From Candidatus Oxydemutatoraceae bacterium (lineage in GTDB: Bacteria > Pseudomonadota > Gammaproteobacteria > Poriferisulfidales > Oxydemutatoraceae): a DNA stretch of 64,000 nucleotides. Positions within the stretch are counted from its first letter, which is position 1. Each line of letters begins with the position of its first letter. Shown piece by piece: positions 2,852 through 46,711 of this stretch. Position numbers and translations under genes: made by a program. The notes beneath the pieces were generated by a model. It ran no database searches, was not told where the DNA came from, and saw only the letters and a program-made list of their open reading frames with translations. The stretch is from contig OZ250161.1 of NCBI GenBank assembly GCA_965237985.1, positions 104,078 through 168,077 of the forward strand, given 5' to 3'.

Positions 2852-2865
2852 CAATATTTAGGAAA

Positions 2866-3604
2866 GGGTCATGACAAGTTAAGCGGCTCTTTTCTGAATA
2901 TTCCAAGCAAAATCTTGTAAAGATTTTGCTTGCGATTGTTGAATCTAAATTCACATTCTTTAAGATGTAAATTGAATGTACTTTTGTCCATCCCTTTAAA
3001 CTTTACCAACCTAGTTTTTGCATAACCCCAAAATGACTCTATGCCATTAATATGAGAATTTCCTCTGGCGAATTCATTCTCACCATGATGAACTCTAAAG
3101 TGCTTCTTATAACCAAAATCTACTAAACCATTATACCCACGCCAGCCATCAGAATGAACAACACTATCTATGCTTGTTTTACCTCTAATTATCTTGGTTA
3201 AAGTCGCTGCAGTGCAATCTGGAACAATCTCAGTATAAACTTTATCACCGCGTTTTAATAAACCAAATACTTTGGTTTTACCTTTGGCGCCACGACCACG
3301 CACACCTTTGACTCTTTTTGCCCCAAAGTAAGATTCATCAACTTCAATCTGTCCCACTAATAGGGCAGATTGGTTGGTTGAATCTCTGGCAACCCGCTTG
3401 CGAATTGCCTTTAAATATTGATTAATAGTTTGTCTACTTAACTTTGTTAATTATTGGATTTGAACGGCGTTCAAATCCAAAGAAAAATAGCGAATAATTT
3501 CTCTAAATTTATGCTCAGAAATTCTTGAACGAATTACATATTTGTTTTTCATTGTCATAACAATACTTATCATGTTTTTAAACATGCTTAATTTGTCATG
3601 ACCC
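2866..3604. mobile_element. IS1595-family insertion sequence (ISXO2/IS1016-like, about 739 bp) with 19-bp terminal inverted repeats GGGTCATGACAA(G/A)TTAAGC
   Basis: Inverted repeats at 2866-2884 and 3586-3604. The element encodes a DDE_Tnp_IS1595-type transposase split across two frames. Confidence 0.7.
2869..3357 (-). CDS. IS1595-family transposase, catalytic DDE portion
   Basis: 162-aa ORF with ISXO2-like transposase motifs (HSDGWRGY, NGIESFW). The N-terminal HTH part (MTMKNKYVIRSRISEHKF...) lies in another frame at 3451..3558. Confidence 0.7.
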   Translation of the reverse strand: MGQIEVDESYFGAKRVKGVRGRGAKGKTKVFGLLKRGDKVYTEIVPDCTAATLTKIIRGKTSIDSVVHSDGWRGYNGLVDFGYKKHFRVHHGENEFARGNSHINGIESFWGYAKTRLVKFKGMDKSTFNLHLKECEFRFNNRKQNLYKILLGIFRKEPLNLS

Positions 3605-3623
3605 TACTTTTTTACTAATTTTT

Positions 3624-5525
3624 TCAATACGCACTATTCGCTCCCGCCAGCACGGCCCTTGCCCAACAGGAAACGGAACACCCGGCGGCTTTTGCTGCTA
3701 CGGCGTATTGGTCGGCCTGTGCCTGGGTGAGGCGAAATCCGATGAGTGTTGTACTCCCTCTGCTCCGGGCGTCCGGCGGCGGGATGTTTTCGGGCGGGTT
3801 GTTCAGTATGTCTCTGGCCCACATCGCCACGCTCTGGCCGCTGGCTTTCGCCCGGACAGTGGCGGCGGTGTGAACGGCATTACTCACACGCAGAGCAAAC
3901 ATTATGCTCTTTAGAGGTTGCTTGACCGTGGCAGGCTTTGCTTTGACTTTGGGCCGTTGAACTTCCTTTATTTTCGACTCGGCTGGGGCTGTTGCTGGTG
4001 CCGGGGAAGGTGCGCCACCAAGCAACACCGCCCTTGCCCAGTACGTTATGGAATGCCCTGCCGCTTCTGCGGCAAGGGCGTATTCTTCGGCTTGGGCAGG
4101 GGTAATGCGAAAGCCGATCATTTTCCGGCGATTTTCACGTCTGGTGTTTACCGGGGGAAGCTGCTCCGGCGGGAAGTTCAGCATCGCGCTGGCCCAAATG
4201 CCGACACTCAGCCCCTCGGCCTCCGCCTTGGCGGCGGCGGCGTATTCTTCCTCGCTGACACGTATGGAAAACATACTGCGTGTGCTTGGTTCATAGGGGT
4301 CTTTTGGCGGTTTTAAGTTATGGCTATTTTGCCTCGGTGTTGCCGATAGCTTTTTCTTCGGCTTGCTTTTACCTTGCAGCAAATCGCGCAAGGTCGCGCC
4401 GATCCGCTCGGCGGCGACTTCTGTGGCTTTATCCGATACGTGGGTATAACGCAAGGTCATGCTGGTTTTGCGATGCCCCAACAGTTTTGAGACCATTGGG
4501 ATTGTTACCCCCTTGATTACGGCGTGGCTGGCGAAGGTATGGCGCAGGTCATGGACTCGCACGTCCTCAATTCCCGCCCTTTCGCGCATGTCTCGCCAAT
4601 ACTGATCTATGTTGTTTCGGGGCAGTTTCGGGTCTTTAATCCACGGAAACACCCACCGGGTGCCGTTTCTTGGTTGGCGTTCCAGAATGCTGATGGCCTT
4701 CTTGCTCAAATAAACTTCTCGCTGCCCGGTTTTGGTGTCGGGTATCTTGATAATGCCGTCACGAATCATCGACCATTCAAGCAAGGTGATCTCCCGATGA
4801 CGGCACCCGGTCAAAAGGATCAAGCGGACAATATCCGCGCCCTGCCTGTAGTCCCGGCTTTCCTTTTCGGCATTTTTCAGAACCTTTGATAACCGGGTGA
4901 TTTCCTCTGACGACAGAAAGCGGTTAAGAATTTTCTTCGGGTTCTTGCGAATACCCTTGGCCGGGTTTTCGCTCAAATGGCCGCAAACGACTGCAAACTC
5001 CAGAATGGACAGAAGAACCTCCAGTGCGCGATTAGCCCCGCCGGGATAGGTCTTGCTGTAGATGTCGAACCACTCGGCAACCCCCGGCTTGTTGATCTCG
5101 TCCAGATACATCTTGCCGAACTCTGGCAACAAGCGGGAATTGATATAGCTACGGGTCGATCTCTGGCCCGTGGGTTTGAGCAAGACAAATTTCTGCTCAT
5201 GCCACGCACCAAAAATAAACTCGTCAAAGCGTGGCGCGTTCGATATGCGCTCGGCCTGTGTCGGCTCTCCCATCTGCAAGCTGGTCAGCGTATCAACGCA
5301 AGCCTGACGGGCCTCGGCCTCCGACATAACCGGGAACTTTCCCAGCGTTACCTTGTGGATTTTATCGCGTACCAATCCATGCAGGATAAAAGCCTTGTAC
5401 CCGGTCGGCCTGACGCGAAGGCCACACCCGAAAAGCTGATTGTCCCATGCAACGTATTCCTTGCCCTCAACGGCAAGCTGGCGCACACGACTGTCCGTGA
5501 GTTTTAATTTCAATTTGCTTTTCAT
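3624..5525 (-). CDS. int: P4-type tyrosine integrase (DUF4102 arm-binding N-domain plus catalytic core) fused to four C-terminal ribbon-helix-helix (MobC/NikA-like) repeats
   Basis: The catalytic region carries HDLRHTFAS...LGH...Y. The C-terminal 230 aa hold four copies of a motif of the form h-x-[FL]R[VIL][ST]-x7-A-x-A-x-G-x-S[VI]-x2-W-x-R-x2-[LM]. Confidence 0.85.
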   Translation of the reverse strand: MKSKLKLKLTDSRVRQLAVEGKEYVAWDNQLFGCGLRVRPTGYKAFILHGLVRDKIHKVTLGKFPVMSEAEARQACVDTLTSLQMGEPTQAERISNAPRFDEFIFGAWHEQKFVLLKPTGQRSTRSYINSRLLPEFGKMYLDEINKPGVAEWFDIYSKTYPGGANRALEVLLSILEFAVVCGHLSENPAKGIRKNPKKILNRFLSSEEITRLSKVLKNAEKESRDYRQGADIVRLILLTGCRHREITLLEWSMIRDGIIKIPDTKTGQREVYLSKKAISILERQPRNGTRWVFPWIKDPKLPRNNIDQYWRDMRERAGIEDVRVHDLRHTFASHAVIKGVTIPMVSKLLGHRKTSMTLRYTHVSDKATEVAAERIGATLRDLLQGKSKPKKKLSATPRQNSHNLKPPKDPYEPSTRSMFSIRVSEEEYAAAAKAEAEGLSVGIWASAMLNFPPEQLPPVNTRRENRRKMIGFRITPAQAEEYALAAEAAGHSITYWARAVLLGGAPSPAPATAPAESKIKEVQRPKVKAKPATVKQPLKSIMFALRVSNAVHTAATVRAKASGQSVAMWARDILNNPPENIPPPDARSRGSTTLIGFRLTQAQADQYAVAAKAAGCSVSCWARAVLAGANSAY

Positions 5526-6671
5526 GATGACAGCACTCCCCCGATGGCAGAGGACACGGTCCGCGCCGTGTATTGGATATCGTCGTTGGCAAGGTGGGAA
5601 TATTTCAGGGTGATTTCCGGGTCGGCATGTCCCAGCAATCTCCCGATGGTGATAATATGCTCGCCATGCCCAAGGGCCACGCTGGCGTAAGTGTGGCGCA
5701 AGTCATGCATTCGAACGTTTGCCAGCCCCGCTTGTTCGCGGATGGCGCGCCAATTGTAGTCGATATAACTTTGAGTGATGGTTCCCGCTTTCCCGCGTAA
5801 GGCCGGGAAAACATACAGGGACGTTCTGGGGATTGCTTCCAGAACGTCACGGGCGGCGGATGAGAGGAAAATGGTTTTCGCACCCGTCTTGCTGTCGGGC
5901 AAATACAGGTTGCCGTGCCTGCAGCTTGGCCACTGCAACCCCATCGCTTCCCCTTTCCGGCAACCCGTCAAAATAACAAATTTCAGAAAGGACACCACAA
6001 GCGGTGATGTTGCGCGATTGCTTTCCAAAACGCCCCCAAGCGTTGCCAGTTCATCCGCCGACAAGAACCGCTCCTTTGCCGCCACCTTATAACGGGGGGT
6101 GCCTTTGCACGGGTTGGAATTATCAGGCCGATAACCGTAAATTTCGGCTTGCTGCATCAGGACGGAAAGAATAGGCAGGGTTCGGTTTGCCATGCCGGGC
6201 CGGTTGCCAAGCGAGGCGAACCAGCGGGTAATATGGCTCTTGTCGCTCTCGCCAATTTTCATCCCTTTGAAAAATGGCAAAATGTGGTGATCGTAGGTGT
6301 TGCGGCTGGAACGAAACATGGAATCTTTCCAGTGCCGTCTGTAACGGTCAAAGAATATCTCGCCGACTTCCTCAAACAACGCCTGTTTAAGCTCCGGCGG
6401 TCTGGGGGTCGCTCTGCTTTGCAATACTCCGCAAGGCCAGTGCGCGTGCCTTCGCCTCCGTCAACTTTGTAGTTGAACCAAGGCTATTCCACTTTCGCCG
6501 CCCCCTCACCTGAGCCTGAACGAAGTACGTTTTGCCCCCGCTAGGCGAAACCCGAACGCCAAACCCGGTAAGCTCACCATCGCGAACACTGTAAAATTTT
6601 TCTTGGGGTTTAAGGCTATCAATCAGTTTTTGGGTTGATTTTTGCTTCTCCATGAGTTTTTCCTTTTGCAT
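5522..6671 (-). pseudogene. Second P4-type integrase, split by a frameshift between the arm-binding domain ORF (6387..6671) and the catalytic ORF (5522..6424)
   Basis: ORF 6387..6671 is a DUF4102-like N-domain (YSVRDGELTGFGVRVSPSGGKTYF). ORF 5522..6424 is the catalytic core (HDLRHTYAS). They overlap by 38 nt in different frames near a C5 run. Confidence 0.6.
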
Positions 6672-7670: not shown

Positions 7671-8132
7671 ATGCCTCGTGTCCCAAAACGTCCTCTGATT
7701 TCGGAAATCAATGTCGTGCCCTACATCGACGTTATGCTGGTGTTGCTGGTTATTTTCATGATTACGGTTCCTTTGATTCAGCAGGGGGTAGAAATCAACT
7801 TGCCTGAAGTAGAGGGGAAGCCGGTTACCGATGCGGATGGCGCGCCGGTTACTGATCCGTTAATTGTTACGGTGGAACGCGATGGGAAACTTTGGGTCAA
7901 TCGCCAGGGTGTTGGGGAAACGGCCATGGACTTGGAGGGGATTGCGGACGCTTTGCAGCAGCTGTTGCCGGAAAATCATTACGAGGTCTATTTGCGGGCG
8001 GATGAACATGCCAGATATGGTGATGTGGTGAAGGTTCTGGTCACCATTCAGGAACTCTTTCCCGAGGGCGTGGCAGGAGGACAGACTGTCGGCCTGATAA
8101 CAGCCCCGCCGCCTGATGAGGAAAACTTTTGA
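7671..8132 (+). CDS. tolR: Tol-Pal system protein TolR
   Basis: ExbD/TolR family. N-terminus MPRVPKRPLISEINVVPYIDVMLVLLVIFMIT. Confidence 0.9.
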   Translation: MPRVPKRPLISEINVVPYIDVMLVLLVIFMITVPLIQQGVEINLPEVEGKPVTDADGAPVTDPLIVTVERDGKLWVNRQGVGETAMDLEGIADALQQLLPENHYEVYLRADEHARYGDVVKVLVTIQELFPEGVAGGQTVGLITAPPPDEENF

Positions 8133-9132
8133 AGTGAACCTGGAAAGGCTTTGGCTCCGGGGTGGTGAAACGCGGAAAAACAAGTCTTTATTTTCTCTTG
8201 TCCTTGTTGCATCCTTGGCATTGCATGCATTGGTCATTGGTGTCCTTGCCATGGTTATTACCGCCCCGGGGACAAGTGCCACTCCAACCCGTGCTCCCCT
8301 GTCGGGAGTCGTTCAGGCAACGGCGGTCAGTGCGGCGCAGGTTGAACGCTGGCGCGAGCGGAAAGTAGCAGAAAAACGCAGGTTGCAAGAGGAGAAAATG
8401 ACTGAACAGCGGGAGAAAGAACGGGTTGCCCGCAAGCAGCGGGAGGCACAGGAAGCAAAGCGTGCCGCAAAAAGAGAAGCGGATATCATGGTGCGCAAGC
8501 AGGAAGTGATGGAGGCCAAAAGGAGATCAGAAGCGGCTGAGGCGCGTAGAAAGGCGGAAGAAGCCAAGGCGAAAGCGGCGGCTGAGGCGCGTAGAAAGGC
8601 GGAAGAGGCCAAGGCGAAAGCGGCGGCTGAGGTACGTAGAAAGGCGGAAGAGGCCAAGGCGAAAGCGGCGGCTGAGGTACGTAGAAAGGCGGAAGAAGCC
8701 AAAGTGAAAGCGGCGGCTGAGGTACGTAGAAAGGCGGAAGAAGCCAAGGTGAAAGCGGCGGCTGAGGTGCGCAGAAAGGCGGAAGAAGCCAAGGCGAAAG
8801 CGGCGGTAGAGGCACAGCTTCGTGCGGAAGCCGAGGCGCGCCGCAGCCGTGAATTGGTGTTGCTGGTCAACAAATATGTACGCGATATCGAAAATAGGAT
8901 TCGGTCAGTGTGGAGCGTCCCGCCCGGTGGCATTGGTCATGGTGACTGCACCATTCGTTTGGAGCAGGACAGAAGCGGCATGGTAAGAAGCGTGCAGATC
9001 CAAAGCTGCGAGGGCAACCAGTTATATCGCCAATCGCTTGAAGAGGCAGTGTTGAAAGCAGCTCCTTTGCCACTGCCGGGTGCTGCGGAGATCTTTGATG
9101 CGGAGGTCGAAGTCACATTCAGACTTCAGTAG
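8116..9132 (+). CDS. tolA: Tol-Pal system protein TolA with a 6x 15-aa Ala/Lys/Glu-rich tandem repeat
   Basis: N-terminal TM anchor, long AEARRKAEEAKAKAA repeat helix, C-terminal TolA domain. Position between tolR and tolB. Confidence 0.8.
   Translation: MRKTFEVNLERLWLRGGETRKNKSLFSLVLVASLALHALVIGVLAMVITAPGTSATPTRAPLSGVVQATAVSAAQVERWRERKVAEKRRLQEEKMTEQREKERVARKQREAQEAKRAAKREADIMVRKQEVMEAKRRSEAAEARRKAEEAKAKAAAEARRKAEEAKAKAAAEVRRKAEEAKAKAAAEVRRKAEEAKVKAAAEVRRKAEEAKVKAAAEVRRKAEEAKAKAAVEAQLRAEAEARRSRELVLLVNKYVRDIENRIRSVWSVPPGGIGHGDCTIRLEQDRSGMVRSVQIQSCEGNQLYRQSLEEAVLKAAPLPLPGAAEIFDAEVEVTFRLQ
8536..8805 (+). repeat. 45-bp tandem repeat x6 inside tolA (encodes AE[AV]RRKAEEAK[AV]KAA)
   Basis: Direct read of the sequence. 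Period is 45 bp with a few point differences. Confidence 0.85.
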
Positions 9133-14570: not shown

Positions 14571-16568
14571 CTTTGAAAACAGGAGCATGAAGCCATGAGG
14601 CCTCCTGCACGTTTGTTGCTTGAAGACGGCACTGTTTTTTGTGGTTGCCAAGTGGGTGGGGACCAACGAGGGGATGGCGGTCGGCGAAGTGGTGTTCAAC
14701 ACGGCGATGACTGGTTACCGGGGGATATTGACCGCTCGTCTTGCCGACAGCAGATTATTACCTTGACCTGCCCGCATGTCGGCAACGTCGGGACAAACGG
14801 TGAAGATTCTGAATCGTCCAATTGAAAACAGGAGCATGAAGCCATGAGGCCTCCTGCACGTTTGTTGCTTGAAGACGGCACTGTCTTTTGTGGTCGCCAG
14901 GTGGGGACCGACGAGGGGATGCGGTCGGCGAAGTGGTGTTCAACATGGCGATGACTGGTTACCAGGAGATATTGACCGATCCGTCTTACCGACAGCAGAT
15001 TATTACCTTGACCTGCCCGCATGTCGGCAACGTCGGGACAAACGGTGAAGATTCTGAATCGTCCAATTGAAAACAGGAGCATGAAGCCATGAGGCCTCCT
15101 GCACGTTTGTTGCTTGAAGACGGCACTGTCTTTTGTGGTCGCCAAGTGGGGACCGACGAGGGGATGGCGGTCGGCGAAGTGGTGTTCAACACGGCGATGA
15201 CTGGTTACCGGGGGATATTGACCGATCCGTCTTGCCGACAGCAGATTATTACCTTGACCTGCCCGTATGTCGGAAACGTCGGGACAAACGGTGAAGATTC
15301 TGAATCGTCCAATTGAAAACAGGAGCATGAAGCCATGAGGCCTCCTGCACGTTTGTTGCTTGAAGACGGCACTGTCTTTTGTGGTCGCCAAGTGGGGACC
15401 GACGAGGGGATGCGGTCGGCAAGTGGTGTTCAACACGGCGATGACTGGTTACCGGGGGATATTGACCGATCCGTCTTACCGGCAGCAGATTATTACCTTG
15501 ACCTGCCCGCATGTCGGCAACGTCGGGACAAACGGTGAAGATTCTGAATCGTCCAATTGAAAACAGGAGCATGAAGCCATGAGGCCTCCTGCACGTTTGT
15601 TGCTTGAAGACGGCACTGTCTTTTGTGATCGCCAAGTGGGTGGGGACCAACGAGGGGACGGCGGTCGGCGAAGTGGTGTTCAACACGGCGATGACTGGTT
15701 ACCGGGGGATATTGACCGATCCGTCTTGCCGACAGCAGATTATTACCTTGACCTGCCCGTATGTCGGCAACGTCGGGACAAACGGTGAAGATTCTGAATC
15801 GTCCAATTGAAAACAGGAGCATGAAGCCATGAGGCCTCCTGCACGTTTGTTGCTTGAAGACGGCACTGTCTTTTGTGGTCGCCAAGTGGGGACCGACGAG
15901 GGGATGGCGGTCGGCGAAGTGGTGTTCAACATGGCGATGACTGGTTACCGGGGGATATTGACCGATCCGTCTTACCGGCAGCAGATTATTACCTTGACCT
16001 GCCCGCATGTCGGCAACGTCGGGACAAACGGTGAAGATTCTGAATCGTCCAATTGAAAACAGGAGCATGAAGCCATGAGGCCTCCTGCACGTTTGTTGCT
16101 TGAAGACGGCACTGTCTTTTGTGGTCGCCAGGTGGGGACCGACGAGGGGATGCGGTCGGCGAAGTGGTGTTCAACATGGCGATGACTGGTTACCAGGAGA
16201 TATTGACCGATCCGTCTTACCGACAGCAGATTATTACCTTGACCTGCCCGCATGTCGGCAACGTCGGGACAAACGGTGAAGATTCTGAATCGTCCAACTG
16301 AAAACAGGAGCATGAAGCCATGAGGCCTCCTGCACGTTTGTTGCTTGAAGACGGCACTGTTTTTTGTGGTTGCCAAGTGGGTGGGGACCAACGAGGGGAT
16401 GGCGGTCGGCGAAGTGGTGTTCAACACGGCGATGACTGGTTACCGGGGGATATTGACCGCTCGTCTTGCCGACAGCAGATTATTACCTTGACCTGCCCGC
16501 ATGTCGGCAACGTCGGGACAAACGGTGAAGATTCTGAATCGTCCAATTGAAAACAGGAGCATGAAGCC
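14571..16568 (+). repeat. Tandem array of eight partial copies of the carA 5' end (about 246 bp each; 5'-UTR with SD plus first 74 codons), head-to-tail directly upstream of intact carA
   Basis: ATGs at 14595, 14844, 15089, 15335, 15579, 15829, 16079 and 16320 each follow GAAAACAGGAGCATGAAGCC. Each copy ends ...GAAGATTCTGAATCGTCCAATTGA. The ninth ATG at 16569 is the intact gene. Confidence 0.9.
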
Positions 16569-17702
16569 ATGAGGCCTCCTGCACGTTTGTTGCTTGAAGA
16601 CGGCACTGTCTTTTGTGGTCGCCAAGTGGGGGCCGAGGGGATGGCGGTCGGCGAAGTGGTGTTCAACACGGCGATGACTGGTTACCAGGAGATATTGACC
16701 GATCCGTCTTACCGACAGCAGATTATTACCTTGACCTGCCCGCATGTCGGCAACGTTGGGACAAACGGTGAAGATTCTGAATCATCCACAGTATTTGCTT
16801 CTGGTCTGGTGTTGCGGGATGTTCCGCTCATGGAACAGAACTGGCGTAGCGAATGTTCTCTTCCTGACTTTTTGAAACTGCGGGGAGTGGTCGCGATTTG
16901 TGATGTGGATACCCGGCGCCTGACGCGACATTTACGTGATCAGGGTGCGAAAAACGGGGTTTTGTACAGCACAGACTATAGCGATGAAGAAGCAAAGAAA
17001 GCTCTGTTGGCATTTCGTGGACTGTCCGGCACTGATCTGGCAGCGGAAGTCAGCACCTCCCACGCCTACGACTGGGATGAAAGTGTGTGGTGCCCTGGAG
17101 GCGGGTTTGCCACCAGGAACGACGGTGATTTCTACGTGGTGGCATATGATTTTGGAATCAAGCGGACGATTTTGAGAATCCTGACCAGCCTGAATTGCAA
17201 AGTGCGTGTTGTGCCGGCTAAAACCCCGGTGGGTGAGGTTTTGTCCTTGCGACCTGATGGTGTGTTTTTGTCCAATGGCCCGGGAGATCCGGAGCCATGT
17301 TTTTACGCGATCGAGTCAGTGCGTAAGATCCTGGATGCAGGCATCCCTTTGTTCGGGATATGTTTGGGGCATCAGCTGCTGTCTTTGGCGTGTGGTGCGC
17401 GCACTGTGAAGATGAAATTTGGCCATCATGGTGCCAACCATCCGGTTGAAGAACTGGCGACCGGAAAAGTCTTGATTACTTCCCAGAACCACGGTTTTTG
17501 TGTTGACGAGAGTTTTTTGCCTTCCTGTTTGTCCGCGACCCACCGCTCCCTTTTTGACCAGAGCCTGCAGGGGGTTCATCACACCGGGAAACCGGCCTTC
17601 GGGTTCCAGGGACACCCCGAAGCCAGCCCCGGCCCGCACGATCTGGTACCGTTTTTCTCCCACTTCATGGATTTGATGAAAGATTGTGCCAAAAAGAACT
17701 GA
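16569..17702 (+). CDS. carA: Carbamoyl-phosphate synthase small subunit CarA
   Basis: N-terminus [21 protein letters not shown]...[20 protein letters not shown]. GATase triad region GICLGHQ. It overlaps the carB start. Confidence 0.9.
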
Positions 17703-21758: not shown

Positions 21759-23630
21759 TCACGATTTCCCCTTTGGTGATTCTACTTCTTTCCCTTCGCA
21801 AAAGTGCACGAATCCTTTAACGTTGCCCACGACCCACTCAAACTCTTCCTTCGTAAGTTCTTGGCCGTCTTGACTGAATTTTTTCCTGTATACAGGTTCA
21901 CTGGCTTTTTTGTGCATTAGAGTGAGAAGGTTTTTACCTTCTCGGTTGTACATGGGTATTCCCGTTTTCCGGTTTACAGGCAATTGTTTGATGACCCTGT
22001 CGACACAATGCATTAGTTTTGCACTGGGTACGCGCCTGCAGCAGCTTTCGGCAACATCTGGGATGCCCAATATGCCGGTTTCTTTAAAATCAGTCGACCA
22101 CTTTGCATTTGTTGATGATTTCTCCATGTGCTCCAGATCAAACAGTGTGTCTCTGTTTGGTGCACGTCCATTTTTCAGTGTGAGGTAGCTAAGACAGTGC
22201 TTTGTATTTGCACTCACTTTCGTGCCCTCAATATACCCTGCCAATCTATACCCTTCCAATCTTTCGCCAATTCTTTTTTCCAAGGTGGCTGTCAGTTGCG
22301 CATGTAAGCGATTCTGTCCTGATGAAGAGATTCCGGGCGCAAAAGCGAGCGGTTCCTCTGCTGTCCTGATATCAAAAAATTCTGTGACATGATAAGCCTG
22401 CATTTTATGAGTTGCCCAGTAATCTCTACGTTGAATCCATGTTTCGTTATCAGAAATTGTCCGTGTCTTCCCGGACACCGCAACAAGTGTTTTCGTTATT
22501 TCTATTTTGGGGCGTTCTGCCCCTACACTTTTCCCTATTATTGCTGCGTCGGTTTTGCCGGCATCGGGCTTCGTTGCGCTCGTGTCTGGTGTATTTTTTC
22601 CAGTTATAGGCCGATTTCTGCCGCTTCCGGGATCTTTTGCCACTTTGATACGACTACTCTCATCTTGTGGCGTAGGCCCACTTTTGGTGGTACTGGATTT
22701 ACTGGATTGTGGTGTTCCTGCTCTGCTCGTGTTCGGCGTTTCTTTTTTTTTGTTCCTTGTAGGCTGACTGTTGCCTTTTTTCGCAGGGGGCTTCAGATTT
22801 TGTTTCGGGTTTTTTGTTAGGGCATTGCTGGCTGCCGTTCCTCGTGTTAAGTCCCTCCGGGTTACTCGTTTTTTTTCTGTCACCGGCTGACTGTTGCCGG
22901 GATCTTGTGTCGTACCTGTGAGGTGACTTTGCTCTTGTGTTGCAACCGTAGATGTCAGGTTGGTGTGTTCCTCAGTGGGTTTTTTGTCTGTCACCGGCTG
23001 ACTGTTGCCGGGATCTTGTGTCGTACCTGTGAGGTGACTTTGCTCTTGTGTTGCAACCGTAGATGTCAGGTTGGTGTGTTCCTCAGTGGGTTTTTTGTCT
23101 GTCACCGGCTGACTGTTGCCGGGATCTTGTGTCGTACCTGTGAGGTGACTTTGCTCTTGTGTTGCAGCCGTAGATGTCAGCTTGGTGTGTTCCTCAGTGG
23201 ATTCTTTGTCTGTTGCCGGGTCTTGAAAGGTGCTGGGCGTGATGGCTTCAGTGTTAGTTTTGGGAAGTTCAGTGCCCGGGGTGTTCTGGTTGCCTCCCGT
23301 ATCGGGTGTGGCTCTGCTGCTGGCAAGTCTTTGCGATTCCTCATGGATGTAACGGTTAAACTCCCTCCTGTTCTGCAAGGTTTTTTCTTGTTCTGTGGAG
23401 ATCTTGAATTCCTCATTTTCACTACCAAGAGCTGCAGCCAGTATATTCCTGCGGCTCTGCAGCTCTTGCTTGCGATAATTTTCACTGAACTTGTAGCGAA
23501 AAATATGCACTACCCAGCCTGAGAATGAGTTCTTGAGAACACATTGCCCGTTACCATTGTCTGTTTGTACCCCCAGTCTGCCCAGCTGACTTCTGGCAGC
23601 TCTCTGCAAGATTCCATCACCAATTTCCAT
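21759..23630 (-). CDS. Hypothetical protein, 623 aa, with central Thr/Gln/Ser-rich low-complexity region (3 x 37-aa repeats) and a conserved-looking C-terminal domain
   Basis: Long open frame. Repeat TDKKPTEEHTNLTSTVATQEQSHLTGTTQDPGNSQPV x3. No recognisable family. Confidence 0.55.
   Translation of the reverse strand: MEIGDGILQRAARSQLGRLGVQTDNGNGQCVLKNSFSGWVVHIFRYKFSENYRKQELQSRRNILAAALGSENEEFKISTEQEKTLQNRREFNRYIHEESQRLASSRATPDTGGNQNTPGTELPKTNTEAITPSTFQDPATDKESTEEHTKLTSTAATQEQSHLTGTTQDPGNSQPVTDKKPTEEHTNLTSTVATQEQSHLTGTTQDPGNSQPVTDKKPTEEHTNLTSTVATQEQSHLTGTTQDPGNSQPVTEKKRVTRRDLTRGTAASNALTKNPKQNLKPPAKKGNSQPTRNKKKETPNTSRAGTPQSSKSSTTKSGPTPQDESSRIKVAKDPGSGRNRPITGKNTPDTSATKPDAGKTDAAIIGKSVGAERPKIEITKTLVAVSGKTRTISDNETWIQRRDYWATHKMQAYHVTEFFDIRTAEEPLAFAPGISSSGQNRLHAQLTATLEKRIGERLEGYRLAGYIEGTKVSANTKHCLSYLTLKNGRAPNRDTLFDLEHMEKSSTNAKWSTDFKETGILGIPDVAESCCRRVPSAKLMHCVDRVIKQLPVNRKTGIPMYNREGKNLLTLMHKKASEPVYRKKFSQDGQELTKEEFEWVVGNVKGFVHFCEGKEVESPKGKS
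22880..23215. repeat. 111-bp tandem repeat x3 inside the 21759..23630 ORF
   Basis: Direct read of the sequence. Period is about 110-111 bp. Confidence 0.8.
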
Positions 23631-23758
23631 TTTTACAACCCCTCCATAAGCATTACCGCAACTTTGCGCATACTAACATCAATGTGTTGTGATTGTTTGG
23701 GGAGAACTGGTTGGTCTTGGTTCTTTGGGCAGTTCAGTGGCCTGTTTCAGGGTGCATT

Positions 23759-24367
23759 TCAATATGCTTGTTCCCACCGCTTGCTTCCTGTCGGAATTGC
23801 ATTAACCAGGATTATCGACTGGCTGACTTTTTCGGCAAACTTTTTTCTGGGATCGTCCCCGCAGGCCGAGTATGGCCTGTCGCTGTCGGAGCAATTGATT
23901 CGGTCAGTGATGGCACGCTCAACGATGCCGCTGTCCCCGGGTGCTCGCCGGTAGATTTTTTCGTATTTGAGCCAAGGACAGGATCTTTCTTCGTTGACCC
24001 CGTCAATGCGGTGCCCCCGGTTAGCCATGGAAATCCGAATGCAACCGTTCGGGAAAGGCAAGGTTGGTACATTGGCAACCTTGGCTGGGGTTGAAGATCT
24101 TAGGCTGGCAGTTGTGGCGGAGTGCTTCAACAGCGCTTGTCCAAAGTGTTCGACAGTTGTCCCACGCCAAGAACTTTCCGGCTTGCCCGGTTGTAGATGG
24201 CAACCAGGGATACGAACCCCCGTCGCATTGGGACGCGCATGATGTCGGCACACCAGATACGCAGATTGATTGTCATGTTCTTCAGCAAGGTCCGGTGCTC
24301 TGGATATGGCTTGCTGATGCGGGGTTTGCGATGGATCACTGCCAAGCCGGCACAGTATGGCCTGCAC
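23759..24367 (-). CDS. Hypothetical protein (202 aa), no recognisable family; may be non-coding
   Basis: ORF only. Plus-strand alternatives are Trp-rich and less protein-like. Confidence 0.25.
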   Translation of the reverse strand: MQAILCRLGSDPSQTPHQQAISRAPDLAEEHDNQSAYLVCRHHARPNATGVRIPGCHLQPGKPESSWRGTTVEHFGQALLKHSATTASLRSSTPAKVANVPTLPFPNGCIRISMANRGHRIDGVNEERSCPWLKYEKIYRRAPGDSGIVERAITDRINCSDSDRPYSACGDDPRKKFAEKVSQSIILVNAIPTGSKRWEQAY

Positions 24368-24541
24368 TGGGGTTTCAACGGCCCCGGCATCATTTCTTGA
24401 CCCCTCACTGCCTTTGTGCTCTGGTGATGGTTTTGTGTTTCCTCAGTCAATGGGAGAATAGACGGAAACAAAGTGCGACCACACGTTCACTTGTAAATGC
24501 AACATCCAGCAGGTAGCACTGGCATTCGGACATCGGCAGAT

Positions 24542-25234
24542 GGGGCTGATTTGTGGCTACGGTCAGTGGTTTCCGTCCTGTTTCAGTCGTCCGGATTTTT
24601 TAGTTTTTTTGCAGTGCGTAAATGGTTGCGAGTGCCTGGCGAGGAGACAGTTCGTTTGGGTCCAGTTTTTTCAGAGCTTTCAATGCCGGGTGGTGGTGGT
24701 CAAATGCGAGTTTCGGTTGCTGCGGGGAGGGTTTTTGGACACACTGCATGGCTTCCAGCTCCTCCAGCTTCTGGGGCTGATTTGTGGCTACGGTCAGTGG
24801 TTTCCGTCCTGTTTCAGTCGTCCGGATTTTTTAGTTTTTTTGCAGTGCGTAAATGGTTGCGAGTGCCTGGCGAGGAGACAGTTCGTTTGGGTCCAGTTTT
24901 TTCAGAGCTTTCAATGCCGGGTGGTGGTGGTCAAATGCGAGTTTCGGTTGCTGCGGGGAGGGTTTTTGGACACACTGCATGGCTTCCAGCTCCTCCAGCT
25001 TCTGGGGCTGATCTGTGGCTACGGTCAGTGGTTTCCGTCCTGTTTCAGTCGTCCGGATTTTTTAGTTTTTTTTGCAGTGCGTAAATGGTTGCGAGTGCCT
25101 GGCGAGGAGACAGTTCGTTTGGGTCCAGTTTTTTCAGAGCTTTCAATGCCGGGTGGTGGTGGTCAAATGCGAGTTTCGGTTGCTGCGGGGAGGGTTTTTG
25201 TTTTTGGGCACACTGCATGGCTTCCAGCTCCTCC
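24542..25234. repeat. 231-bp unit x3 comprising the last ~63 codons of mutS plus ~42 bp of 3' flank; two extra copies lie downstream of the mutS stop
   Basis: Units start at 24542, 24773 and 25004. The third overlaps the genuine mutS 3' end (stop 25045). Confidence 0.85.
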
Positions 25235-27630
25235 AGCTTCGCAAGCGCCTGTTTCAGGGTGGCTTCCGGAAGACCTGCCAGGCGGGCGACCTGGATGCCG
25301 TGGCTGCGGCTGGTGCCTCCGACTTTTACTTTGTGCAAAAACACGACTTCTCCGGCGTGCTCTATTGCGTCCATGTGGACATTTTGCACTTGTGGGTATT
25401 TTTCGCAGAGCGTTGTCAATTCGAAATAGTGTGTGGCAAACAATGTCAGTGAGTGGTTCCGGCTTGCCAGTTCTGCCGCACATGCCCAGGCCAGGCTGAG
25501 TCCGTCGAAGGTACTTGTTCCCCTTCCGATTTCATCCATCAGTACCAGGCTGTCCGGCCCGGCGTTATTCAAAATGTTGGCTGATTCCGTCATTTCCACC
25601 ATGAATGTAGAACGTCCCGAGGCGATGTCATCTGCCGCGCCAATCCTCGTGTAAATGCAATCCAGGGGGCCGATGGTGGCTTCTGTAGCAGGCACCCAGG
25701 CGCCGATATGTGCCAGTAAGGCAATTTGAGCTGTTTGGCGCATGTAGGTGGATTTTCCGCCCATATTCGGTCCGGTGATTACCAGCATGCGTTGTTTCTC
25801 ATCCAGATCGAGGTCGTTTTCCACGAAAATGTTTTCCTGGCTGAGTTCTACGACGGGATGTCGTCCGCCCTTGATGTGTATCCCCCGGGAGGCAGCCAGT
25901 GTCGGTCGGCAGTACTTTCGTTCTTCTGCGCATTTGGCAAGGGTGGTAATGACATCTGTCGCAGCCAGAGCGGCTGATGTTGCCTGCAGGCGACTGATGA
26001 AGGGGCGGAAATAAAGCAGGATTTCCCGGAACAGTTTTTTCTCTTTGGCAAGTGCTTGATCGCGGGCGGCAAGTACACGGCCTTCCAGAGATTTCAATTC
26101 GGCAATGGAGTAACGTTCTGAGTGTTTTAGCGTTTGCATTCTTCGGTAGTCCTCCGGAGCTTTCTCAGCAACTGCGCGTGGCATCTCTATGTAATAGCCG
26201 TGCACCCGGTTGTAAGCGACGCGCAAATTATTGACTCCTGTCCTGCGCCGTTCCCGATTTTCAATTTCTATCAAATGTCCGGAAACGTTTTTATGCAGTC
26301 CGCGAAAATAGTCCAATTCCGGGTCGTATTTGGAGCGAATGACTCCGCCATCACGTATGGTGGCAGGGGGAGTGTCCACAATTGCCTGTGCAAGATGTTG
26401 TGCGAGTTCCGGTTCGGGGTGCAGGTTGGCATCAAGATTTTTGGCCAGCGGGCTTGTCAGAGTGCCCAGCGTAGTTTTCAAAACCGGCACCAGCTCCAGA
26501 GTTTCCCGAATGCCGTTCAGATCTCGGGGTTTTGCTGTTTCCAGAACCACGCGTGCCAGCATGCGTTCCAGGTCATTACTGCGTCCCAGTATGGCGCGTA
26601 GATTGTGCAGGGTTTCCTTATGTACCAGTTCGCCGATCAGTTCCTGGCGTTTTTGCAGGGCTTCGCGTTGCCGTAAGGGACTGGCAAACCAGCGCCGCAA
26701 ACAGCGCGCTCCCATGCTGGTAACGGTGTGATCGTGAATGCCAACGAGCGTTCGCTTGTGATCGCCTGAAGTCGATTTTTCTATTTCCAGGCAACGGCGA
26801 CTTGTGGCGCTGAGCTGCACAAAATCTTCATCGTTTTCCACGATGAGGCTACGCAAATGTGGCAACTCTGATTTCCTGGTGTCCAGCACGTATTGCAAAA
26901 GCGCCCCGGCAGCTGCAACAGCCGTGTCTTTGTTTATGCAACCGAATCCTTCCAGACCCAGCACCTCAAGCTGCCGGCATAATAGCCTGCGTGCATTTCT
27001 TATCAGAAAAACTGATGCCGGCAAGCTTTGCGGCTGGTGCTTTTCCAAAGTGAAAGTGCGGTTTTCACTGACCAGAAGTTCAGCCGGATGCAGGCGGTCT
27101 ATTTCATCATCCAGTGCGGCGTGGCTGGCAGTCTGGCGGATAGTCAAACGACCGGAACTGAGTTCAAGCGTGGCGATGCCGAATACCGGCTGTTTTGTTT
27201 TTTCATCGCTATGTACGGCCATGACCAGATTGTCTCGTTGCTCATCCAGCAGTGTGTCTTCAACGACGGTTCCCGGAGTGACCACGCGCACCACTTTGCG
27301 CTCCACAGGCCCGCGGCCTTGTACCGGGTCGCCGACCTGGTCGCAGATTGCCACAGTCTTTCCCAGGCGAACCAGTTTGGCGAGATAGCTTTCCACCGCA
27401 TGTACTGGCACACCAGCCATGGGCACTTTCTTATTGCCGTAACGGCCGCGGGAAGTCAAAGTAATATCAAGGAGCTTTGCTGCTTTTTCGGCATCGTGAA
27501 AAAACAGTTCATAAAAATCCCCCATATGATAGAAAAGCAGGGTGTCCGGGTATTCAGACTTTATGCGCAGGTACTGCTGCATCACGGGGGTGTGTTCGCT
27601 GATCATGAGTGTGCTGCTCTCCAGGGGCAT
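25045..27630 (-). CDS. mutS: DNA mismatch repair protein MutS
   Basis: 861 aa. N-terminus [28 protein letters not shown]. Walker [10 protein letters not shown]. Confidence 0.95.
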
Positions 27631-32916: not shown

Positions 32917-33696
32917 TCAACAGCGCTTTGGCAGCCATGTCCCTGTATTGCTTTGCATGGCGTTGAGAAGAGCGATGTACGTGAAATCCAGTGCTTTTTG
33001 TACAGCGGCTTCCAAAGGATTGGCGCAGGCCATGTACGTGGCAATCGCGCTTGCCAATGTGCAGCCACTGCCATGATAGGTGTGCCGGAGGCGGCGGCTG
33101 CGAAAAGTCCGTGTGGTTTTTTTTGTCTGGTACAGCCGATGAATCAATTCTTGCCGTGTGATTTTCACGCTGGTGACCAATATGGCGGTGCAACCAGAGT
33201 CGAGGAGGACCTGTGCTGCCATGTCGGCATTGTGGGTTCCTGGGGCCAGTGTCAGTGCTTCTTCGTAGTTGGGGGTCGCCAGGCATGCCATGGGCAACAA
33301 CTGCTTTTGCAAAGCCGCGATTCCAGTTGTAGTGTTGAGTGACTGGCCGGTTCCAGCATTGATGACCGGGTCGACGACTAAAGGTACAGGTGGAAATTCC
33401 CGCAAGACCTCGCTGACTGTTTTCGCATGCGGCCCCAGCATTCCAGTTTTGATCAGAGAGATTTTGAACTCTGAAAAAACCGTTTGAATTTGAGCCCGCA
33501 AATCGCGGGCACTTATGGCCTGCCAGGAAAGGACTGCGTTTCCGCTTTGTGTGGTGTTGCAGGCAAGTGCACAGACCGGATGTCCCCCGCAGGCGGAAAC
33601 CGTTTCTATGTCGGCCTGCAACCCGGCACCTCCGGTAGGATCGAATCCAGAAACGCATAGCACGACTGGTATTTTTCTGTTTTTTATTTTAACCAT
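32917..33696 (-). CDS. thiD: Hydroxymethylpyrimidine/phosphomethylpyrimidine kinase ThiD
   Basis: VVLCVSGFDPTGGAGLQADI N-terminus. PfkB-family kinase. 259 aa. Confidence 0.85.
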   Translation of the reverse strand: MVKIKNRKIPVVLCVSGFDPTGGAGLQADIETVSACGGHPVCALACNTTQSGNAVLSWQAISARDLRAQIQTVFSEFKISLIKTGMLGPHAKTVSEVLREFPPVPLVVDPVINAGTGQSLNTTTGIAALQKQLLPMACLATPNYEEALTLAPGTHNADMAAQVLLDSGCTAILVTSVKITRQELIHRLYQTKKTTRTFRSRRLRHTYHGSGCTLASAIATYMACANPLEAAVQKALDFTYIALLNAMQSNTGTWLPKRC

Positions 33697-33942
33697 GGCG
33701 ACAGTTTAATGAGTACGACGACGCATTGTAGAAAATAACGGCGGTGCGCAAGGAAGGGTTTTTAGTGGCGTGGTATGCGCAGTGTTCGGTTGTCGTGAAC
33801 GCATAGCACGACTGGTATTTTTCTGTTTTTTATTTTAACCATGGCGACAGTTTAATGAGTACGACGACGCATTGTAGAAAATAACGGCGGTGCGCAAGGA
33901 AGGGTTTTTAGTGGCGTGGTACGCGCAGTGTCCGGTTGTCGT
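33653..33942. repeat. 145-bp unit x2: thiD start codon, first 14 codons and ~100 bp of upstream leader duplicated in tandem
   Basis: AACGCATAGCACGACTGGTATTTTTCTGTTTTTTATTTTAACCATGGCGACAG... occurs at 33653 and 33798. Only two base differences between copies. Confidence 0.85.
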
Positions 33943-34173
33943 GTAGGAGAAGTTGGGAATATCCGGTTTTTGTTTCTGCTGACCTCACTCTGTATCAGGC
34001 ACTCTGTCAAACCAGGGAGCCAAGCAGCCATGCTGCTTCCTGACGAAGACTGCCGCCGGGTAGAATAGCTCGCCTTGCAGTGCAAAGTTTGAAATGAAAC
34101 TGTGTTTTGTAAGAATTGCCTGGCGTAGTTGTCTGTGGCGGAGGCGTTGGTTTTCCTGTTTGGAGTAGTCGAG

Positions 34174-39848: not shown

Positions 39849-40529
39849 TTATTTCGCTTTGTCCGTGGCAGACTGGATCATGACTTTCATTGCGTTTATG
39901 GTTTTCTGGTAATCGGAAGAACCAAAAATTGCTGAACCGGCGACGAAAGTGTCAGCTCCTGCACTTTTGGCGGCGGCAACGTTTTCGGCATTGACTCCCC
40001 CGTCGACCTGTAGGCGGATTTGTCGTCCGCTGGCATCAATGCGGCAGCGTGCCTGTTCCAGTTTCTGGTACGCCAGCGGGAGGAATGTTTGTCCACCAAA
40101 GCCTGGATTGACTGACATCACTAAAATCATGTCTACTTTGTCGAGGACGTAATCCAGGCAGGAAAGTCCGCTCGCCGGGTTGAAAGCCAAGCCGTTTTTA
40201 CAACCACAATTACGGATCAGTTGGAGGCTTCGGTCCACGTGGTCGGTTGCTTCCGGGTGGAAGCTGATGTAATCGGCGCCGGCTTCAGCAAAGGCGGTGA
40301 TTAAACCGTCCACCGGTCGGGTCATGAGATGCACATCGATCGGGGCGTTGATGCCGTAATTCCGCAGGGCGCTGCAGACCATGGGGCCAAAACTCAAGTT
40401 GGGAACATAATGATTGTCCATGACATCAAAATGCACCATGTCGGCACCGGCATCGAGAACAGCAGACACTTCTTCTCCGAGTCGGGCAAAGTCCGCGGCG
40501 AGTATGGAGGGACAGATTTGGTCTTTCAT
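39849..40529 (-). CDS. rpe: Ribulose-phosphate 3-epimerase Rpe
   Basis: [21 protein letters not shown]...[17 protein letters not shown]. 226 aa. Confidence 0.9.
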
Positions 40530-42975
40530 ATGCTGGGTGAGCCATTATCCACCGGTCGGGTCATGAGATGCACATCGATCGGGGCGTTGATGCCGTAATT
40601 CCGCAGGGTGCTGCAGACCATGGTGTCAACACTCAAGTTGGGAACAGAATGGGCACATCGTGTTGGTTCATGACATCAAAATGCACCACGTTTGCGCCGG
40701 CATCGAGAACAGCAGACACTTCTTCTCCGAGTCGGGCAAAGTCTGCGGCGAGTATGGAGGGACAGATTTGCTCTTTCATAAGCCGGGTGAGCCATTATCC
40801 ACGGCTCGGGTCATGAGATGCACATCGATCGGGGCGTTGATGCCGTAATTAAGGGCGCTGCAGACCATGGGGCCACAACTCAAGTTGGGAACATAATGAT
40901 TGTCCATGACATCAAAATGCACCATGTTTGCGCCGGCATCGAGAACAGCAGACACTTCTTCTCCGAGTCGGGCAAAGTCCGCGGCGAGCATGGAGGGGCA
41001 GATTTGCTCTTTCATATGCTGGGTGAGCCATTATCCACGGCTCGGGTCATGGGAGGCACATCTGGTCGGGGAGCTGATGCCGTAATTCCGCAGGGCGCTG
41101 CAGACCATGGGGCCACAACTCAAGTTGGGAACAGAACAGTTGTCCATGACATCAAAATGCATCCTGTCGCGTCGGCGCCGGCATCGAGAACAGCAGACAC
41201 TTCTTCTCCGAGTTGGGCAAAGTCCGCGGCGAGTATGGAGGGACAGATTTGCTCTTTCATATGCTGGGTGAGCCATTATCTACCGGTCGGGTCATGAGAT
41301 GCACATCGATCGGGGCGTTGATGCCGTAATCCCGCAGGGCGCTGCAGACCATGGGCTCAAAACTCAAGTTGGGAACAGAACAGTTGTCCATGACATCAAA
41401 ATGCACCATGTCGGCGCCGGCATCGAGAACAGCAGACACTTCTTCTCCGAGTCGGGCAAAGTCCGCGGCGAGTATGGAGGGACAGATTTGGTCTTTCATA
41501 TGCTGGGTGAGTAATTATCCACGGCTCGGGTCATGGGAGGCACATCTGGTCAGGGAGCTGATGCCGTAATTCCGCAGGGCGCTGCAGACCATGGGGCCAA
41601 AACTCAAGTTGGGAACATAATGATTGTCCATGACATCAAAATGCACCACGTTTGCGCCGGCATCGAGAACAGCAGACACTTCTTCTCCGAGTCGGGCAAA
41701 GTCTGCGGCGAGTATGGAGGGACAGATTTGCTCTTTCATAAGCCGGGTGAGCCATTATCCACGGCTCGGGTCATGAGATGCACATCGATCGGGGCGTTGA
41801 TGCCGTTATTCCATAGGGCTCTGCAGACCATGGGGCCAAAACTCAAGTTGGGAACATAATGATTGTCCATGACATCAAAACACACCATGTTTGCGCCGGC
41901 ATCGAGAACAGCAGACACTTCTTCTCCGAGTCGGGCAAAGTCCGCGGCGAGCATGGAGGGGCAGATTTGCTCTTTCATATGCTGGGTGAGCCATTATCCA
42001 CCGGTCGGGTCATGAGATGCACATCGATCGGGGCGTTGATGCCGTAATCCCGCAGGGCGCTGCAGACCATGGGCCCAAAACTCAAGTTGGGAACAGAACA
42101 GTTGTCCATGACATCAAAATACACCATGTCGGCGCCGGCATCGAGAACAGCAGACACTTCTTCTCCGAGTCGGGCAAAGTCTGCGGCGAGCATGGAGGGA
42201 CAGATTTGCTCTTCCATATGCTGGGTGAGCCATTATCCACGGCTCGGGTCATGGGAGGCACATCGATCGGGGCGTTGATGCCGTTATTCCATAGGGCGCT
42301 GCAGACCATGGGGCCAAAACTCAAGTTGGGAACATAATGATTGTCCATGACATCAAAATGCATCCTGTCGGCGCCGGCGCCGGCATCGAGAACAGCAGAC
42401 ACTTCTTCTCCGAGTCGGGCAAAGTCTGCGGCGAGCATGGAGGGACAGATTTGCTCTTTCATATGCTGGGTGAGCCATTATCCACGGGTCGGGTCATGAG
42501 AGGCACATCGATCGGGGCGTTGATGCCGTTATTCTGCAGGGTGCTGCAGACTGTGTGGGGTCAACACTCGGGTTGGGCGACAGAATGGGTACATCGTGCT
42601 GGTTCATGACATCAAAATGCATCCTGTCGCGTCGGCACCGGCATCGAGAACAGCAGACACTTCTTCTCCGAGTCGGGCAAAGTCCGCGGCGAGTATGGAG
42701 GGACAGATTTGCTCTTTCATATGCCGGGTGATCCATTATCCACGGCTCGGGTCATGGGAGGCACATCTGGTCGGGGCGTTGATGCCGTAATCCCGCAGGG
42801 CGCTGCAGACCATGGGGCCAAAACTCAAGTTGGGGATAGAATGGGTACATTGTGCTGGTTCATGACATCAAAATGCATCCTGTCGCGTCGGCGCCGGCAT
42901 CGAGAACAGCAGACACTTCTTCTCCGAGTCGGGCAAAGTCTGCGGGGGCAGAGAGGGACGGATTTGCTCTTTCAT
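40530..42975 (-). repeat. Tandem array of ten partial copies of the rpe 5' end (about 240 bp each; start codon plus first ~75 codons), head-to-tail directly upstream of intact rpe
   Basis: Minus-strand ATGs at 40779, 41015, 41276, 41499, 41739, 41978, 42217, 42462, 42720 and 42975 each begin MKEQ/DQICPS[IM][19 protein letters not shown]. Most end [13 protein letters not shown] with the TGA overlapping the next ATG. Confidence 0.9.
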
Positions 42976-46222: not shown

Positions 46223-46711
46223 TCAGTCGGCAAGCGTGGAGTCGAGCACCGCCACCGTCATGGCTTCGCGAAATGCGGCTAACTTGCGGTGCAGCGATTC
46301 CGAGTGCGTCGCCAGCAAAGCACAAGCGAACAGGGCGGCGTTTTCCGCCCCTGCCGGACCAATAGCAAAAGTCGCGACCGGTACACCTCTGGGCATCTGC
46401 ACAATCGAGCACAGGGCATCCACTCCCTGCAACTGGCCACCAGTAACGGGCACGCCAAGCACGGGAAGCGGCGTCAGCGAGGCAATCATGCCCGGCAAAT
46501 GTGCCGCGCCGCCGGCACCGGCAATGATACATGTCAAACCGCGTTCTTTTGCGCTTTTTGCATACTCATACATCAGTGTTGGTGTGCGGTGTGCCGACAC
46601 GATTTTCTTCTCGTAGGGAATGGCGAAGCTGTCCAGGCGTTCAGCGGCGTGTCTCATGACTGGCCAGTCATTTTTGCTACCCATGAGGAGTCCGACGACT
46701 GGTTCTTTCAT
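46223..46711 (-). CDS. purE: N5-carboxyaminoimidazole ribonucleotide mutase PurE
   Basis: [14 protein letters not shown]...[14 protein letters not shown]. Confidence 0.9.

Follow-up and report, generated by a model that had tools for sequence, protein, structure and literature searches.

The mutS gene lies on the minus strand of contig OZ250161.1 from a Candidatus Oxydemutatoraceae bacterium, in a stretch of 64 kb that was analysed as a whole (hereafter, the window). Its 3' end is present there as three head-to-tail copies, namely the genuine terminus and two extra copies downstream of it. The gene itself is intact and all five MutS Pfam domains are present; the public gene call for it (P0001) starts 8 codons later and is 100% identical. 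In both the window and the relatives described below, mutS stands in the gene order M23 peptidase-carA-carB-greA-orphan genes-mutS-cinA-RNase T-lepA-folP.

Tandem arrays were called with Tandem Repeats Finder (TRF), and arrays with a period of at least 100 were considered large. At the end of mutS, TRF finds an array at 24541-25240 with a period of 231, 3.0 copies, 98% matches, and a score of 1323. Direct reading and the self-comparison of the array, run at offsets of 231, 232, and 238, agree with TRF on three tandem copies with the last unit (C) being the real end of the gene, as was claimed in a preliminary description of this DNA. The unit starts given in that description (24542, 24773, and 25004) are each one base off the true ones (24541, 24772, and 25003), an immaterial offset that leaves the array itself as described. 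Unit C consists of the last 64 codons of mutS (25048-25240), the stop codon (25045-25047 in the list of open reading frames, or ORFs), and a 3' flank of 42 nt (25003-25044), in accordance with the approximately 63 codons, the flank of approximately 42 bp, and the stop at 25045 reported earlier. The mutS coding share of this unit is 193 of 238 nt, and it is colinear with mutS of the relatives. The extra units A and B lie directly 3' of mutS in the orientation of the gene (24541-25002), which also agrees with the earlier account.

Unit A abuts the original downstream flank at CAGCCCCA/TCTGCCGATG (mutS sense). No microhomology between the two breakpoints of the array junction was found by self-comparison and in the junction listing. 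A perfect repeat of 231 nt cannot arise by chance. The units are placed head-to-tail, are at least 100 bp long, and have high identity; unit C carries the stop of an intact mutS, and A and B are truncated fragments of its tail. Every unit holds a stop codon on the mutS strand and MutS terminates in unit C, so that an in-frame tandem repeat internal to the protein is ruled out. Thus the sequence evidence supports the earlier reading that the mutS 3' end and a short flank have been amplified downstream of the intact gene. Coordinates of this and other features are collected in the table.

Table. Features of the window and tandem arrays of related contigs. Positions without a contig name refer to the window.
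Feature	Position	Strand	Description
mutS	25045-27630	-	861 aa; ORF list, translation, and Pfam MutS_I-V all match
Unit A	24541-24771	-	231 nt; distal extra copy of mutS tail and flank
Unit B	24772-25002	-	231 nt; extra copy of mutS tail and flank
Unit C	25003-25240	-	238 nt; genuine mutS 3' end
Junction A/B	24771/24772		+ strand CTCCAGCTTC/TGGGGCTGAT; identical junction at 25002/25003
Original mutS downstream sequence	24368-24540	-	now displaced by 462 bp
Relic ORF in unit A	24600-24749	-	49 codons, identical to that in unit B; ORF list
Relic ORF in unit B	24831-24980	-	49 codons, MQCVQKPSPQQ...IYALQKN-stop; ORF list
Antisense ORFs over the array	24540-25499; 24497-25084	+	319 aa; 195 aa; ORF list
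carA 5'-end array	14573-16788		246 x 9; 22 nt upstream and 224 nt coding
Orphan-gene array	22868-23213		111 x 3.1, in frame, inside gene 21759-23630
thiD 5'-end array	33652-33943		146 x 2.0, 98%; first 45 nt of thiD and 101 nt upstream; thiD at 32917-33696, minus strand
rpe 5'-end array	40309-42975		period ~239 x ~11, 88% matches; 18 nt upstream and 221 nt coding
IS481-like transposase 5'-end array	58553-60018		487 x 3.0, 99%; gene start and upstream
cinA 5' end, entire cinA-mutS divergent spacer, and first ~8 mutS codons	L162 9128-10000; L163 9152-10024		218 x 4
thiE/folP convergent 3' ends	L162 4023-4976, among loci listed		period 318-322 x 3
trpE 5' end			152 bp; 6.8, 8.2, and 10.8 copies in three strains
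trpC 3' end			279 bp; 3, 3, and 5 copies in three strains

The copies are not all alike, and their differences allow one to order the events. Units A and B are 100% identical, and unit C differs from them at four sites of the alignment: a Val/Ala codon (GTC in A and B, GCC in C); a 6-nt insertion CAAAAA in C, which adds Gln-Lys; a poly-A run (A8 in C, A7 in A and B); and one substitution inside the 42-nt flank. All three coding differences change the protein, none being synonymous. In A and B the run shorter by 1 nt leads to a frameshift, the reading frame ending with ...IYALQKN and the last 7 residues being lost. To polarise these differences, three relatives (L081, L162, and L163) were used as an outgroup. 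They have no 6-nt insertion, the second base of their Val/Ala codon is T, and their tail is in the same frame as that of copy C. By this comparison A and B are shown to retain the ancestral state at two sites, C having gained the Gln-Lys insertion and the Val to Ala replacement in a poorly conserved linker. Since this polarity makes the insertion derived and A and B one A short, the original unit had 232 nt. The first duplication is older than at least two changes in mutS, and A and B are ageing fossils of the gene tail. That A and B are identical suggests either that the second step was recent or that the two have been homogenised.

An artefact of assembly or polishing could, in principle, be suspected here, as the genome seems to derive from a long-read metagenome assembly (contig names of the relatives have the form ctg49616_67x_c) and one of the copy differences is the length of a homopolymer. 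We find this extremely unlikely. A and B carry the outgroup state where they differ from C, which marks the extra copies as real DNA rather than an invention of the assembler. Moreover, similar arrays recur at the same loci, with differing copy numbers, on four independent contigs, and an array of 700 bp is far below the span of long reads.

The relatives were found by a homology search with MutS and via its 90% cluster. L081 is a circular contig of 1.92 Mb, L162 a circular contig of 3.0 Mb, and L163 a contig of 157 kb; their MutS proteins are ~84% identical to that of the window. Exact look-ups of MutS and of P0001 had no match, and the scans of genome contigs and, with the MutS tail, of metagenome contigs brought up no relative above 54% and nothing above 50% identity, respectively. 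A comparison with mutS downstream regions of relatives, proposed in the preliminary description, showed the window's array to be absent in all three, two of them having a different one. In L162 and L163 the unit at the mutS 3' end, also of 231 bp, is composed of the last 11 nt of mutS and 220 nt of downstream intergenic DNA, and is present in 3.0 copies in L162 (12518-13209) versus 9.5-10.5 copies in L163 (12542-14977), these being two strains from one sample. In the array-less L081, the two future breakpoints of this array bear an imperfect direct repeat of ~9 nt (AAAAA-N-CCCA), which is a classical signature of slippage. Derivation of the window array from the 231-bp array of the relatives was rejected, as the content of the units differs and the downstream flank in the window is colinear from the end of the unit. 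The two mutS arrays are independent and differ in register.

In the original mutS downstream sequence, weak colinearity with the downstream region of the relatives extends over the first ~50 nt. The array is separated from the neighbouring orphan gene by ~900 bp (23631-24540), ~700 bp of which are not found in L081. The sole ORF of this region encodes 202 aa (23759-24367) and has no Pfam match even at E <= 10. The ~700-bp insertion 3' of the array was considered as a relic of an insertion sequence (IS) and rejected, since it resembles neither the IS481-like element of the window nor, at the same threshold, any Pfam family.

Within the window no trace of the unit sequence was found beyond its three local copies, and cross-BLAST of all arrays was empty, giving no similarity between the mutS unit and other arrays. 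These results speak against a common intergenic element occurring also away from gene ends, the case that the preliminary description had named as contradicting its reading: the unit is seen only at the mutS locus of the window, and its sequence is mutS coding sequence. A dispersed intergenic or mobile element, resembling the repetitive extragenic palindromes (REP) or miniature inverted-repeat transposable elements (MITE) and placed beside mutS by chance, has only the intergenic position in its favour, and its probability is practically negligible. In the window the mutS unit is found only at the mutS locus and is unlike the other arrays, hence it is not a dispersed element, and the 193 coding nucleotides of copy C are colinear with mutS of the relatives.

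The coding portion of the unit can be aligned with positions 786-850 of E. coli MutS and with structures of the C-terminal domain, which has been solved separately as PDB 3ZLJ (chain C) and 2OK2. It represents the flexible linker and the C-terminal tetramerisation domain of MutS (E. coli residues ~801-853). In A and B, the relic ORFs of 49 codons begin within the MutS tail, at an ATG preceded by GGAGGAG at a distance of 9-11 nt, and they are homologous to the linker and the tetramerisation domain in alignments to E. coli MutS, 3ZLJ_C, and 2OK2. One might therefore consider the extra units to be mini-genes: read-through from mutS would yield 49-aa peptides made of the linker and the tetramerisation domain, which would heterodimerise with the C-terminus of MutS and adjust mismatch repair or anti-recombination. 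An ATG-initiated ORF in each extra unit, the Shine-Dalgarno-like string upstream of it, the alignment to the known domain, and the lack of a predicted terminator between the mutS stop and the units all conform to this. However, both the ATG and the Shine-Dalgarno-like string are plain mutS codons (LEELEAM), every coding difference between the copies changes the protein, and the frameshift costs A and B their last 7 residues. The relatives lack the array, and their own mutS 3' array has only 11 nt of coding sequence, so that what recurs at the end of mutS is the formation of arrays and not the amplified domain. In addition, a phmmer search with the 49-aa ORF against 1.84 billion representative proteins brought up no family in which the MutS C-terminal domain stands alone, the query being too short for this to be decisive; the matches were only chance TPR-like repeat proteins and two MutS fragments at contig ends. 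Mini-genes seem very unlikely on these grounds. The likeness to the tetramerisation domain concerns the content of the unit only, and nothing points to expression of the extra copies as a domain.

A regulatory role could also be imagined, with the array acting in the 3' untranslated region (3' UTR) on mutS or on the next gene, as a spacer, insulator, determinant of mRNA stability, or terminator multiplier. The array indeed lies in the mutS 3' UTR, the next gene is on the same strand, and the native 42-nt flank recurs in each unit. On the other hand, neither a sigma-70-like promoter nor a terminator-like hairpin is predicted on the mutS strand inside the array, the unit matches no Rfam family, and its RNA has a less stable fold than that of shuffled controls (z = +2.2). 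The same three observations, the first for a terminator on the minus strand, led us to reject a structured RNA or intrinsic terminator in the 3' UTR. The array is also missing in relatives with the same gene order, and we assign a regulatory role a very low probability. On the opposite strand, the two long ORFs over the array were rejected as genes, having no Pfam support; they exist because an antisense frame free of stops recurs with a period that is a multiple of three. On its + strand each unit (24685-24700 and equivalents) also contains GGGTGGTGGTGG, the antisense of His-His-His codons. In 7 of 8 positions it agrees with GCTGGTGG, the Chi octamer of E. coli, a kind of site that this organism might recognise.

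The mutS array is not the only one in the window. Six arrays with a period of at least 100 are present in the 64 kb and occupy 12% of the bases. The carA array (period 244-250 bp) precedes an intact carA gene (16569-17702), its unit containing ~74 codons and the upstream region including AGGAG; each unit retains the ribosome-binding site and the ATG and meets a TGA at the next unit. At this place L081 has only a 276-bp spacer. The rpe array has a two-unit higher-order period of 484. Its internal junctions carry 18 nt, TAATGGCTCACCCAGCAT, which are absent at the distal end of the array, and this suggests that they are filler DNA of the founding junction. The carA and rpe units are alike in that they start ~20 nt 5' of the start codon and include ~74 codons; the closeness of the mutS unit (231 bp) to them in size, pointed out previously, holds with the TRF periods of 246 and 239 bp. 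The array at the IS481-like transposase belongs to an rve/rve_3 gene at 59860-60693, and a second, diverged copy of the transposase (67% amino acid identity) is found at 62641-63474 on the minus strand. The orphan protein containing the in-frame array (21759-23630) has 623 aa and no Pfam domain; its homologues (31-45% identity) form a multi-copy orphan family adjoining mutS in the relatives, in which coding repeats of 96 bp occur.

Neither the carA nor the rpe array was found in the relatives, and therefore the window arrays are specific to their own lineage. The relatives have arrays of their own, for instance at the cinA end; others, at the thiE/folP, trpE, and trpC ends, are boundary arrays of variable copy number and lie at L162 4023-4976, L164 7242-8268 and 11826-12659, L166 13682-14930 and 18824-19657, and L167 13615-15219 and 18777-20190. 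Copy number of the sister arrays varies between strains of the clade, as described above for the mutS 3' array and in the table for trpE and trpC. In the cinA array, gene callers produce three spurious 'CinA' fragments of 69-72 aa and, in L162, call MutS 8 residues too short. The clade has 12 non-coding arrays of period at least 100, and every one of them takes in a gene end, a 5' end in six cases and a 3' end in the other six, with an intact gene left in each case. Microhomology at the boundaries of most other arrays is 0-3 nt (0 nt for thiE/folP, 318 x 3.0; 1 nt for cinA, 218 x 4.0), and no motif common to the arrays was seen in the junction listing.

Taken together, we consider it quite probable that the mutS array is a tolerated and most likely functionless tandem segmental duplication, being one instance of a lineage-wide process that makes and resizes arrays of 100-500 bp at gene boundaries. 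As the junction implies, a 232-bp segment from codon -64 to 42 nt past the stop would first have been duplicated head-to-tail in a homology-independent manner. Because this segment spans the stop codon and leaves an intact mutS, the upstream copy still reads mutS up to its stop with the native 42-nt flank, and MutS is unchanged. With one intact mutS left, the duplication would be tolerated; one with both ends inside mutS would disrupt the gene, and only those spanning a boundary would survive selection. In general, duplications that end in different genes or spacers would leave every gene one intact copy, and since the spacers are shorter than the units, nearly every surviving array would include a gene end. 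The 5' and 3' ends are then expected to be hit about equally, with which the observed six versus six agrees, and it would also be explained why at mutS the end of a gene and not its start was amplified. In a further step, the two 232-bp repeats probably gave rise to the third copy, by replication slippage or by unequal exchange between sister strands, hence the identity of A and B. Finally, the copies diverged, C gaining Gln-Lys and the Val to Ala replacement, and A and B losing one A and thereby acquiring the frameshifted tail. The net result is two pseudogene fragments of the MutS tail, 462 extra bp downstream of mutS, and a locus that would be prone to changes in copy number.

Several observations weigh against such a simple scenario. 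The near-equal periods of the mutS-end arrays, 232 and 231 bp in two independent arrays, are not expected from a purely random process, and several other periods are loosely grouped at 218-246 bp, though the full range is 105-487 bp. Three-copy arrays are the commonest and two-copy ones are rare, a pattern not expected from simple duplication followed by drift. The A7/A8 difference could be a homopolymer sequencing error, and read-through translation of the relic 49-codon ORFs is possible, given GGAGGAG and no predicted terminator before them.

The first of these points would fit a dedicated active mechanism at gene ends, for example an enzyme-driven or transcript-end-linked one, with a length ruler of ~230 bp. 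The shared start offset and codon number of the carA and rpe units, the blunt junctions (the rpe one with its filler), and the extraordinary density of arrays are in line with it. Still, the width of the overall range of periods, the lack of both a motif common to the junctions and a similarity between the arrays, and the units that span whole spacers and both gene ends (cinA/mutS and thiE/folP) make it unlikely. Moreover, the direct repeat flanking the L162/L163 mutS array is typical of slippage, and in a compact genome a segment of ~230 bp is expected to overlap a gene end by selection alone. One may speculate further that the clade owns an active, length-biased (~220-250 bp) array-building mechanism at gene ends and that the arrays are used by the cell, e.g., that of mutS as a source of MutS tetramerisation-domain peptides or of recombination cassettes for the MutS tail, either of them modulating mismatch repair, with the copy number serving as a heritable and reversible rheostat; this we regard as quite unlikely. 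The tolerated duplication at a gene boundary remains the explanation that we prefer.

The repeat load of the clade was estimated with the TRF settings of a published survey (PMC3287509) from the window and 145 kb of the relatives, which are small and non-random regions. Tandem repeats cover 12.7% of the window, 12.5-23% of five loci of the ERZ25071281 strains, and 1.7-3.6% of two L081 loci. For 160 other mutS loci from Gammaproteobacteria (1.58 Mb) the coverage is 0.21%, and arrays of period at least 100 make up 0.057% of the bases, the background against which the six arrays of the window stand; an array at the mutS end occurs in none of the 160. In the survey mentioned above, E. coli has a tandem-repeat content of 0.38%, whereas that of Ehrlichia ruminantium is 6.3% and is called the highest reported for bacteria (PMC3287509, Table 4). 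The array-rich genomes lie above the latter value in the loci sampled, though these are a small and non-random sample. Relatives with MutS at least 90% identical differ in their load, 1.7-3.6% of the sampled loci in L081 and L165 versus 12-14% in L162 and L166 (and in the window); for the circular contigs, the same comparison sets the array-poor genome of 1.92 Mb against the array-rich one of 3.0 Mb.

Variable tandem repeats of E. ruminantium, reportedly described by Collins et al. in 2005 (PNAS) and by Frutos et al. in 2006 (J Bacteriol), appear to be the closest known parallel. They are said to form many head-to-tail arrays with periods of ~100-470 bp, mostly in non-coding DNA and at gene boundaries, to differ in copy number between close strains, and to leave truncated gene fragments beside the parent genes; slipped-strand mispairing or unequal exchange is the proposed driver. 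In contrast to that AT-rich member of Rickettsiales, we deal here with a gammaproteobacterium with ~52% GC and a genome of 2-3 Mb. The 6.3% is genome-wide versus 12-23% in the sampled loci here, ~2-3 times as much in a small and non-random sample, and most junctions here are without microhomology.

Tandem duplications in Salmonella and E. coli are formed independently of RecA at little or no homology and are then subject to RecA-dependent unequal exchange. They resemble the arrays considered here in having a new join point followed by expansion and contraction by homologous exchange. However, the classical duplications measure from kilobases to hundreds of kilobases, are unstable, and are kept by selection for gene dosage, whereas the units here have ~0.1-0.5 kb, contain no whole gene, and are old enough to accumulate mutations.

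Two other systems are similar in part. The intergenic variable-number tandem repeats VNTR-141 and VNTR-105 of Wolbachia have units of ~100-140 bp, and their copy number separates close strains; the units are 98-99% identical at varying copy numbers (PMC3287509), comparable with the identity of A and B and with the 3 versus 10 copies in L162 and L163. The Wolbachia units, however, do not consist of gene ends and contain hairpins proposed to trigger slippage, whereas the mutS unit is mostly coding and poorly structured. The lineages of 'Ca. Portiera' that lost dnaQ and other repair genes are rich in repeats and have expanded intergenic regions (PMC7821994). There, too, a lineage-specific burst of repeats with intergenic expansion is opposed to repeat-poor sisters, as L081 is to L162, L163, and the window, but the Portiera repeats are mostly microsatellites and dispersed ones, the genome is tiny and AT-rich, and its repair genes are known to have been lost in part (PMC7821994), while mutS is intact here.

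A single array of the mutS kind is ordinary, and taken alone it is a harmless structural quirk; it is the repeat load of the clade and the pair of array-poor and array-rich genomes that are noteworthy. As a well-resolved case with ordered events and an outgroup, the mutS array illustrates how duplications straddling a gene boundary may escape selection and leave fossils of gene tails. If the load of 12-23% seen in the sampled sequence holds genome-wide, it would be the highest reported for a bacterium. The array-poor (1.92 Mb) and array-rich (3.0 Mb) relatives offer a natural comparison for the cause of the instability and for the share of repeats in genome size. For annotators, such arrays yield spurious short genes (e.g., the 72-aa cinA fragments in the relatives) and long antisense ORFs, which have to be discounted.

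Some other features of the window may be mentioned. Five paralogous orphan-gene modules are situated at 46500-62500 (e.g., 47315-49180, 51101-54532, 57130-58368, and 61214-62236); they have common upstream regions, internal repeats of 440-640 bp, and no Pfam domains. At 1094-6424, a Fic/HTH protein and two tyrosine-integrase genes come after a tRNA-Ser (GGA). One of the integrase genes is fused to NikA-like and HicB-like segments, and the whole is probably a mobile element integrated at the tRNA. Finally, a TolA-like gene with a TonB_2 C-terminal domain (8116-9132), which belongs to a tol-pal-like cluster, contains an in-frame repeat of 45 bp in six copies (8533-8806), rich in Ala, Glu, and Lys.

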